This document shows, piece by piece, positions 21,001 through 24,000 of a stretch of DNA of 43,124 nt. The position numbers are program-made. This DNA is from a virus (Duplodnaviria > Heunggongvirae > Uroviricota > Caudoviricetes): the IMG/VR virus record IMGVR_UViG_2531839664_000026, positions 1 to 43,124 of that record; one strand, written 5' to 3'. How positions within the stretch are numbered: the stretch's first letter is position 1; the number at the start of each line of letters is the position of its first letter.

Positions 21001-24000
21001 TCAGCGTTCCCCAGAAGCTTTCCATCGGAGCGTTGTCGTAACAGTTACCTTTACGCGACATTGATGTTTTCAGACCAAACTGCACCTGTATGACCCGGTA
21101 ATCGTATGCGCAGTACTGTGAACCTCGATCAGAGTGGTGGATTAGCCCGGCAGGTGGGCGCTGGCTCCTGAGCGCCATAAACAGAGCTTTACCTGTCAGC
21201 TCTTTTGTCATGCGCTCTCCCATGGCGTAGCCGACAATTTCGCACGTATAAACATCTTTGATGCCAGCGAGGTACAACCATCCCTCCTGTGTGGCAACAT
21301 ACGTCAGGTCCGCCACCCAGACCTGATTTGGTGCTGTAGGAGCGAACGTCTGGTTCAGCAGATTTGGCGCAACTGGCAGATTGTGGTTCGAGTTCGTAGT
21401 CGCTCTGAACTTGCGTTTCTGCTTACAGCGTAGCCTTAGCTCCTTACGAAGACGTGCCAGTCGGTCACGACCAACGATGATGCCATTCTCTGCCAGCTCC
21501 GTCTGGAGCCGCCGGGTTCCATATGTTTCGCGAGTGCGGATATGTGCCACCTTAATCTCCAGTTTTAGCCGCTCATCACTTTGTTTTCTGTCTGAGGGTT
21601 CATGCTGTACCCAGTTGTAATAACCGCTCCTGGATACACCAAATACCTGACACATCGCTTCAATGGGAAATTGTTGTCGCCATTGTTCGATTAACGCGTA
21701 TTTTTCAGCGACTCCTGTGCAAAATACGCTGTTGCTTTTTTTAATATATCTCGCTCAAGGCGAGCTTCATTTAACGCCTTACGCAGTTGCAGAATTTCAG
21801 ATTCCAGTTCAGCCACCGTGCGGGAACCAGGAGTACCGAGCCCTTTTCTGGCGGCGGTAACCCATTGTCCTAAAGTGCCTTCAGGAAGAGATAATCGGGA
21901 AGCGCCTTCACTGATCGAAAGTTGATTTTCAAGAACCGTTCTGACAGCTTCGGCTTTGAACTCTTTAGAGTAACGTTGGGTTTTTCTGCTCATTATTAGC
22001 TCCTTCTGATGCCATTCTATTTCAGGAAGGAGTGTCCGTTAAACTCAGGCTACCTCAAACATATAAGGCCTTTTAGCCAGCGTCTTCTTTTTCAGGTCAG
22101 TCGCTGGCTTTTTTATTATGCTGCCGGTGCATTTATCTCCAGCATCAGACTTTCTATCTCAACGCCATACGCTGCATTTTTTGTAACATCCGTCAGCGTC
22201 AGCGCATTCAGTCCCAGTGTCAGACTGTCTTTTATAACCTGGAATGCCGGGCCAGCCACTCCATTCAGTTTCGGAGTAACCGTGGCACTGCCGGCGGTGA
22301 ACACCAGCTCCAGCGTCTGCCAGTCGTTACCGTAGTCGCCGAACTCCCCCAGCTTCGTGTTCCCGGCTTTCCTGTGATGCATCAGATTCACTCTGCCGTC
22401 AGTGGTCTGAGTGAAGTACGACATCAGGAACGGATTACCGGTACCCGTCATCGCCACACCATCAGGAACGGGAGCATCCGTATACAGATAAATCCCCAGC
22501 CCGAACTGATTGTTGGTCAGTGCGCCTGACAGGCGGAACTTACAGGTCAGTCTGCCGCCCTGTGTCAGCAGGGTAATTGCGTCATCCACCGGATGCGCCA
22601 GGGACCAGGTTTTATTGCTCTGCTTGGTGATCTTAAATACACCATCTGCCAGCTGAATTCCGCCATCCTTAATAGTCCAGCCCTGCGTAGCAGCCTCTCC
22701 GTCTGCCGGCAGCAGGGAGACTGTGCGGACGGATGTTTCGCTATCAGACGGCCCCGATGGCGTATCGCCGCCGGGCGAGGGGTTGATTTCCGGTGCCTTA
22801 CCACTGATGAAGGCTGAGGTGCGCCCGGCTGCGTTCAGAATAGCGGTTGCCAGGCGATCCGAAATAATGCTCCTGCGCGCCCATGAACTAAAATGTGTCG
22901 GGCGGTTTGATGATACCTGGTTTCCATTCGTTCTCGATGCCGCACCGTAATATCCTGATGCCGGAATATCTGGATCTTCTGCCGGCACATTAGTGGCGGT
23001 ATTGACGCCGTTACCGTCTGTCATGAACGGCACAAAATAAACGCCCTCACTCTCCCTGTTTTTGTACGCCCCGTAAATGGTGTTGTACTGCGTGCCGTAG
23101 GTGTTTTTCCAGTAATACGTCGTGTCACCACAAATCCACGGCACATTTACAGCACTGCCACCATGACACTGCGCGTTAAACACAGTGAGGTCAGCACGAA
23201 ACTGCTTCAGCATGGCTGTAAACAGCGCAGGTTGCTGTGCGTAGGTGGCGGCGCTCATGTCAAACTCTCCCTGCATCCAGCACACCGCCAGCAACACATT
23301 TTTCGGGTTCTTCTGTAATGCAGCTTTGGTGCGCACAATCAGATCCTGATATAACGGCTTACCCACACCCCAGCGCGCCGAATCCTGGCTGGCCCCCGTG
23401 TCCGCACTGAATGTCCCCTCCGCGCCCTGGGTAAATGCCGAACCACCACGACAGCATGGTACCAGCAGGATCCCCGCGTTATTCGGGATATACGGGAGCA
23501 GTTTTTTGGCAATATGTAACCCCTGGCCGACACAGCCGTACTGCCCTTTGCTCAGGTCTGCCTTCGGATGATTCAGCGTACTCATATCCTGCACATCATG
23601 CAGGCAGTGGTCGGCCGGAATAATATCGTTATATCTGCAGGCAGTCCCACCGGCGTCACTGTACTGCGGCGCGCCAGCTGTTTAATGCGCGGATCCGGAG
23701 CATCGTATGAATCCGGCAGCGGAAGCCCTTCACCGTAAGCCATGGCATTGGACTGCCCGGCCAGTACGATGACGTAGTACCAATCCGGCTCAGATGAAGG
23801 GCCGACCGGTGGCTCTCCTTCAATAGCCACCGCCTGCATCAGTGTGTACGGCGTAATGGCAACCGGTCCGCCGTATGGCTGCCAGCCCTCTTTCAGTTTG
23901 TGTGTCAGCTTTTCCGCAAGGTCTGACGGCGACGCCGCCCTGACAACATCATAATGTTTAAATGTCATTATTCCTCCCGGCCGGGATAGTGTATTAAATC

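Follow-up and report, generated by a model that had tools for sequence, protein, structure and literature searches.

The split nanS-p esterase gene of an Escherichia coli O121:H19 prophage contig is most probably an artefact of its draft assembly

Introduction

NanS-p proteins are known to be built from an N-terminal DUF1737, a SASA domain and a C-terminal lectin-like domain (PMC10462455). These enzymes de-O-acetylate Neu5,9Ac2 as well as mucin glycans and are encoded in multiple copies in STEC; de-O-acetylase activity on Neu5,9Ac2 itself has been demonstrated only for the homologues of EDL933 and O104:H4 (PMC8065619). DUF1737 serves phage phi24B as a capsid decoration, and it stays on the capsid after gp84 has been cut by proteolysis following about residue 54-57 (bioRxiv 10.64898/2026.04.10.717836).

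The DNA analysed here is a stretch of 43,124 nucleotides (IMG/VR record IMGVR_UViG_2531839664_000026), referred to as a whole as the window. It carries an ordinary nanS-p, a late-region prophage sialate 9-O-acetylesterase of this already well known family, which shares its three-domain architecture with the NanS-p of Stx and non-Stx lambdoid prophages (933W z1466; phi24B gp84/vb_24B_21). The late-region position upstream of a holin and the occurrence of multiple copies in STEC genomes are likewise common to the window gene and to z1466 and gp84. In contrast to the NanS-p of lambdoid prophages, the window ORF is interrupted at codon 107 by an absent G, and the repaired protein, at 617 aa, is shorter than the 643-645 aa of the Stx2a-phage NanS-p subtypes (PMC10462455). 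No stx gene was found within this prophage stretch of the window.

The chromosomal NanS (YjhS, PDB 3pt5) has the catalytic domain and the GQSN motif in common with the window gene, but it is not prophage-borne and lacks DUF1737 and DUF6645, both of which are present here. Another comparator is the nanS-p of NZ_OY754853, annotated as 'frameshifted', which also has a single-base frameshift and, as in the window, an IS600 directly downstream. Its frameshift is nevertheless located elsewhere (alignment column 1620, compared with 318 in the window), and its assembly is finished.

Results

The interrupted gene and its two fragments were located in the window as follows.

22116..23968, minus strand: nanS-p as a whole, a sialate O-acetylesterase with DUF1737, SASA and DUF6645; 1853 nt as deposited, 1854 nt repaired
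23582..23968, minus strand: upstream fragment ORF of 128 aa, consisting of 106 genuine residues and 22 out-of-frame residues (VGLPADITILFRPTTACMMCRI)
22116..23594, minus strand: downstream fragment ORF, 492 aa from a GTG, deposited as 489 aa from the ATG at 23585
23650..23651, minus strand: frame-break site, with GG in place of the GGG (CCGGGYGGG) of all intact homologues aligned

An earlier note on this DNA had read the two ORFs as consecutive parts of one protein. This is borne out: the minus-strand ORFs 23968..23582 (128 aa) and 23594..22116 (492 aa) are the two halves of one nanS-p gene, as alignment with 1851-1854-nt homologues from finished E. coli genomes revealed exactly one frame-changing indel over the whole gene, and the match of the repaired protein to 3pt5 continues unbroken through the junction. 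The coordinates and the junction peptide RSTVTP given in that note were recovered in the minus-strand translation. At the junction the minus strand reads CGC AGT ACA GTG ACG CCG GTG GGA CTG, which is translated to RSTVTPVGLPADITILFRPTTACMMCRI and closes the 128-aa ORF with the C-terminus RSTVTP-VGLPADITILFRPTTACMMCRI; the adjacent frame gives GGTACRYNDIIPADHCLHDVQDMSTLNH and runs on as the ORF 23594..22116. This true reading frame of the downstream fragment is open from 23650 already, and the in-frame sequence before the 492-aa ORF with its GTG start is GGTACRYNDIIPADHCLHDVQD.

The alignment to intact nanS-p genes, which had been proposed as a check, located the difference to a single run, with GG in the window against GGG in the homologues. 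The intact homologues have ACGCCGGGYGGG and the window has ACGCCGGTGGG, with the GG at 23651-23650. Accordingly, the window shows CC-GGTGGGA where homologues carry CCGGGTGGGG or CCGGGCGGGA, and, over the wider junction, ACGCC-GGTGGGACT where they carry ACGCCGGGTGGGGCT or ACGCCGGGCGGGACT. A second indel relative to the orthologous copy, at 22740-22744, is an in-frame one of 3 nt that is the same as in the paralogue of prophage B described below.

As deposited, the window lacks an uninterrupted three-domain ORF of about 616-645 aa. Insertion of one G, which the earlier note had expected to restore continuity, yields a continuous protein of 617 aa. In this repaired protein Pfam recognizes DUF1737 (PF08410) at residues 3-49 (E=1.2e-15), SASA (PF03629) at 66-262 with the GQSN nucleophile motif at 71-74, and DUF6645 (PF20350) at 468-578. 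Residues 60-379 match PDB 3pt5 (NanS/YjhS) with E = 7e-121, and a further match was obtained to PDB 6yp6, the NanS-p C-terminal domain (E=1.2e-29). Judged by these similarities, the protein is predicted to consist of an N-terminal DUF1737 capsid-binding part, a SASA/SGNH catalytic part and a C-terminal lectin-like part.

The break at codon 107 falls within the catalytic SASA domain, 33 residues past GQSN, and is not at a domain boundary. The description of the upstream ORF as DUF1737-like holds in so far as DUF1737 is present; its 106 genuine residues also include the start of SASA, namely the first ~40 residues with GQSN (nt 23758-23747). The downstream fragment contains the remainder of SASA and the DUF6645 lectin-like domain, without the GQSN motif. 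If the break is real, both fragments would be expected, from SGNH/SASA enzymology, to be inactive as esterase. What splits this strongly conserved gene is a simple frameshift and no chance pattern. The gene is present at ≥80% coverage in 1,392 finished genomes, with 6-9 places matching nanS-p in O121 genomes. At each of the homologous loci examined it is one 'SASA family carbohydrate esterase' CDS, and thus none of these loci has the natural two-gene layout that would speak against a split.

The gene order around the esterase is Q antiterminator, DNA methyltransferase, tRNA-Ile(CAT) and tRNA-Arg, TerB, DUF3927, nanS-p, IS600 and holin. The esterase therefore has the late-region placement of its family, downstream of Q and the tRNAs and upstream of the holin (about 20197-20402). 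An insertion sequence lies between esterase and holin.

20794..22057, minus strand: IS600, 1264 bp, with TG...CA ends and a 3-bp AAC target duplication, the ends having been read from the sequence

This IS600 is situated 58 nt downstream of the esterase stop, and its ORFs at 20837-21655 and 21691-21993 agree with the RefSeq annotation of the identical sequence. The insertion is a real feature, common to finished O121:H19 genomes. The tRNA pair upstream of TerB and nanS-p is encoded on the minus strand at 25141-25217 and 25298-25373; one member is tRNA-Arg(tct), and the second, with a CAT anticodon, is assigned to Met by ARAGORN and to Ile by RefSeq. Further away, the portal and HTH-domain genes (~9958-12542 and ~33136-33953) are annotated as 'frameshifted' in finished O121:H19 genomes, where their sequence equals that of the window; these are either genuine lesions shared with the finished genomes or unusual gene structures. 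At the prophage end, a CHAT-domain protein and an adjoining hypothetical gene (~39642-41773) are encoded beside the integrase (~41907-43124) and could represent cargo with an accessory or defence role.

When the 128-aa product was looked up by exact match, one contig only was returned, the draft record AEZX02000013.1 of assembly GCA_000194395.2, in which the positions are identical to the window coordinates. The deposited proteins of this strain, Escherichia coli 5.0959, are EII10049.1 (128 aa) and EII10066.1 (489 aa), and a look-up across 153 billion gene positions placed each fragment protein on one contig only. E. coli 5.0959 is an O121:H19 Stx2 strain that was sequenced at JCVI (PMC3359367). 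The repaired mosaic protein was absent in an exact look-up among 15 billion proteins, which is weakly informative because short-read drafts seldom assemble through nanS-p.

In nine finished O121:H19 genomes, window 21000-43124 corresponds to a prophage beside yjjG, here called A (99.6-99.7%), and window 1-20664 to the late region of a second prophage, B (99.7-99.8%), which is located >1 Mb from A. In RM8352 the two are found at 5.33 Mb (A) and about 3.61 Mb (B). RM8352 and FWSEC0006 are two finished O121:H19 genomes, independent of each other, in which prophages A and B each have an intact esterase of their own; the window was aligned three-way with them and compared base by base. In the single-copy sequence of 2835-19485 and 23650-43124, about 36 kb altogether, no substitution separates the window from RM8352 or FWSEC0006. 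Nevertheless, the window has six private homopolymer contractions, amounting to 8 bases in all, within 1.1 kb.

16141, minus strand: private contraction, T8 to T7, which splits terL
16483, minus strand: private contraction, T6 to T5, in terS
16509, minus strand: private contraction, T6 to T4, in terS
16525, minus strand: private contraction, T6 to T4, in terS
17201, minus strand: private contraction, G6 to G5
17224, minus strand: private contraction, T7 to T6

At all six sites, which span 16141..17224 and have no substitutions nearby, RM8352 and FWSEC0006 are concordant against the window. Since real divergence would be expected to bring substitutions, beyond run-length losses, such losses without one substitution are characteristic of sequencing error and not of divergence. 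The G loss in the esterase is also a run contraction private to the window with respect to RM8352 and FWSEC0006; it thus has the two marks of an indel artefact, being private to the assembly and accompanied by other run-length indels without substitutions in that same assembly. The kinship that the earlier note had seen between this break and those in terL and holin is supported, as all of them are private and absent from the two independent finished O121:H19 genomes. Over the 19.5 kb from 23650 to 43124 there were no such run-length errors, and therefore the error process is local and not uniform. Two further run-length differences, at 8459 and 17242, are private to the finished RM8352 and not to the window.

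The informative sites of the esterase revealed that its sequence follows more than one copy.

22335..23649, minus strand: mosaic tract in which the window follows the prophage B paralogue (RM8352, 3.61 Mb) over the orthologous A copy (5.33 Mb), from the informative-site table
20358..20391, minus strand: holin comparator site at the switch from A to B, with two private indels, a loss of 2 nt at 20358 and an extra T at 20391

The A copy of the esterase, WP_032212796.1, is uninterrupted in every finished O121 genome that was examined. The window equals this copy from the start codon to 23650 and is identical to it again past the tract through IS600. In the tract itself (23649-22335) we counted 70 mismatches and one 3-nt indel relative to A, compared with 0 mismatches over 23650-43124. 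The best match of the tract is paralogue B (99.4%), with single A-specific alleles at 23645, 23358 and 23343, and at several spots the sequence changes between A-specific and B-specific alleles within 1-5 nt. At the mosaic boundaries, 23794-23652 and 22598-22362, A and B are identical to each other. The absent G is at the 5' edge of the tract, where it is the first informative position. A third paralogue was considered as donor of the tract and rejected; the best O121 match was B at 99.4%, none reached 100%, and three of the six deviating sites were A-specific.

In the holin, a private substitution is found besides the 2-nt loss and the T insertion, all within 75 nt. The A-specific IS600 consequently has a B-like tract on either side, and each of the two junctions is marked by private indels. 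The contig as a whole joins window 1-20430 (B late region) to 20437-43124 (A early region, esterase and IS600), the switch being inside the holin; either a mis-join at a repeat or a recombination specific to this strain has produced it. Window-private clusters of substitutions were also seen at 19486-19839 and 2340-2834, in lysozyme and tail genes; they fit further paralogue mixing, as both gene types are multi-copy among lambdoid prophages.

The occurrence of the deletion in other genomes was determined with two 40-nt probes centred on the break, one in the context of the window and one in the B/O26 context. Neither matched any of 5,426 finished E. coli genomes, while the surrounding 81 nt were found at 3,853 places in 742 of them. 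A degenerate pattern of the deletion allele likewise gave 0 matches in the GTDB species representatives (one genome per species) and 0 in JGI metagenome contigs. In IMG/VR it gave one, in the draft of E. coli DEC10B, O26:H11 (L009 12481, IMGVR_UViG_2526164666_000035; protein EHW71543.1), with the same loss of one G from GGG. This match does not derive from the strain or assembly of the window, as it is of O26 type and comes from a different prophage in the DEC10B draft. DEC10B was also distinguished from strain H19, its finished best match, since the two are different isolates (PMC2211750).

Relative to the finished O26 strain H19, the DEC10B contig has 7 homopolymer indel events in 13 kb, the GGG to GG change among them. 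The contig terminates inside the esterase, which shows no mosaic. With 7 events among 685 runs of at least 3 bases, the chance that random error would strike this G run is only about 1%, and for this reason the site, with its loss of G seen only in drafts, behaves as a systematic error hot spot.

Discussion

Directly observed are the deletion and its confinement to draft assemblies, the further homopolymer contractions private to the window, and the mosaic of paralogues in the esterase. As judged from the comparison with finished genomes, the frame break itself is probably a sequencing or assembly artefact. The G would then be missing from the draft of E. coli 5.0959, assembled in 2011-12, and not from the bacterium itself. 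The consensus of the multi-copy esterase would have combined reads from two or more paralogous copies, one G of the GGG run would have been dropped at the edge of the mixed tract, and the same class of error would have shortened the T and G runs of terL and terS and garbled the holin. A consensus of mixed paralogue reads or a mis-threaded repeat accounts more simply for the A-specific IS600 between B-like tracts than at least three real exchanges.

The pattern resembles the homopolymer and collapsed-repeat errors of early drafts in its private indels, which concern run length only, lack accompanying substitutions and are clustered in multi-copy prophage genes. Unlike the usual homopolymer errors, the run is only 3 bases long here, and the same error occurs in a second draft from another centre, which suggests a context-specific over a random error. 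The drafts of both 5.0959 and DEC10B are presumably 454-based. With only three G, the run is shorter than would be typical of a classical pyrosequencing undercall, and the other contractions are in runs of 6-8; this argues against an artefact. So do the local nature of the error process, which spared 23650-43124, and the existence of real frameshifted nanS-p in finished genomes (NZ_OY754853), from which pseudogenization is seen to be not rare in the family. Illumina drafts usually break within nanS-p, and the absence of deletion and mosaic from such drafts is therefore weak evidence.

The earlier note had offered a decaying prophage or a systematic homopolymer error as the common cause. Error is favoured for terL, holin and esterase, while decay is probably not behind these breaks. 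Real decay of the prophage does exist, as seen from the IS600 and the shared HTH and portal frameshifts, and is separate from them. The mosaic of two paralogues, the join of two prophages and the position of the break inside SASA had escaped that note.

Alternatively, the deletion could be a real, strain-private -1 frameshift that makes this nanS-p copy of E. coli 5.0959 a young pseudogene, which we consider unlikely. Its 128-aa product would keep DUF1737 and GQSN, the re-initiated 489-aa product without GQSN would be expected to be inactive, and the function would be covered by the other nanS-p copies of the genome. The deletion does stand in the deposited sequence, nanS-p pseudogenes are found in finished genomes, and this prophage has been genuinely damaged, with an IS600 beside the gene and HTH and portal frameshifts that are common to finished genomes. 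With 6-9 matching places per O121 genome, the loss of one copy should also be tolerable. However, a history of real mutation is difficult to reconcile with zero private substitutions over about 36 kb next to run-length losses that break essential phage genes, a combination that fits error. Moreover, the deletion occurs otherwise in one indel-rich draft only and in 0 of 5,426 finished genomes, and the break coincides with the edge of the paralogue-mixed tract.

Inter-prophage recombination is common in EHEC, and this general frequency lends some plausibility to a real gene conversion between the A and B esterases, together with A/B recombination in the holin, with heteroduplex repair at the conversion boundary as the step that removed the G. 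The boundaries of the mosaic do lie in stretches where A and B are the same (23794-23652 and 22598-22362), as homologous recombination requires. Keeping the A-specific IS600 between B-like tracts would nevertheless take at least three exchanges, and the alternation of A and B alleles within 1-5 nt is unusual for conversion tracts. In addition, nine finished O121:H19 genomes (99.6-99.8%) keep the two halves in separate prophages, the esterase is unmixed in both fully aligned finished genomes, and it would be left unexplained why DEC10B, whose esterase is not a mosaic, lacks the same G. Gene conversion is thus very improbable, and it fits the data poorly, as does a two-gene or programmed-frameshift arrangement.

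A real and recurrent loss of G, with the CCGGGTGGG site as a mutational hot spot that was hit independently in the O121:H19 and O26:H11 strains, is likewise very improbable; it is disfavoured because the deletion is absent among thousands of copies in finished genomes. If it were true, both strains would produce a separate DUF1737 fragment of 128 aa for capsid decoration that is no longer tied to the esterase.

A natural two-gene layout or programmed frameshift, by which DUF1737 would be made as a decoration protein of its own and the esterase as a second protein, would be in keeping with the single-domain nature of most DUF1737 proteins in databases and with the cleavage of phi24B gp84 that leaves DUF1737 on the capsid (bioRxiv 10.64898/2026.04.10.717836), but it is effectively refuted, as a conserved two-frame homologue is lacking: the break at codon 107 is inside SASA past GQSN and away from the DUF1737 boundary, all homologues examined have a single ORF, and the deletion allele had 0 matches in finished genomes, GTDB representatives and metagenomes.

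Should the frameshift be real after all, it would have inactivated one of several redundant esterase copies, with a small expected phenotype. The break is, though, most probably non-biological, and the value of the finding is as a warning about GenBank protein records and an apparently hybrid contig. Surveys that count nanS-p copies or assess prophage decay should treat EII10049.1 ('PF08410 domain protein'), EII10066.1 ('PF03629 domain protein') and EHW71543.1 of DEC10B neither as nanS-p pseudogenes nor as separate DUF1737 genes. Equal caution is warranted for the disrupted terL, terS and holin genes on this contig and for its seemingly hybrid prophage.
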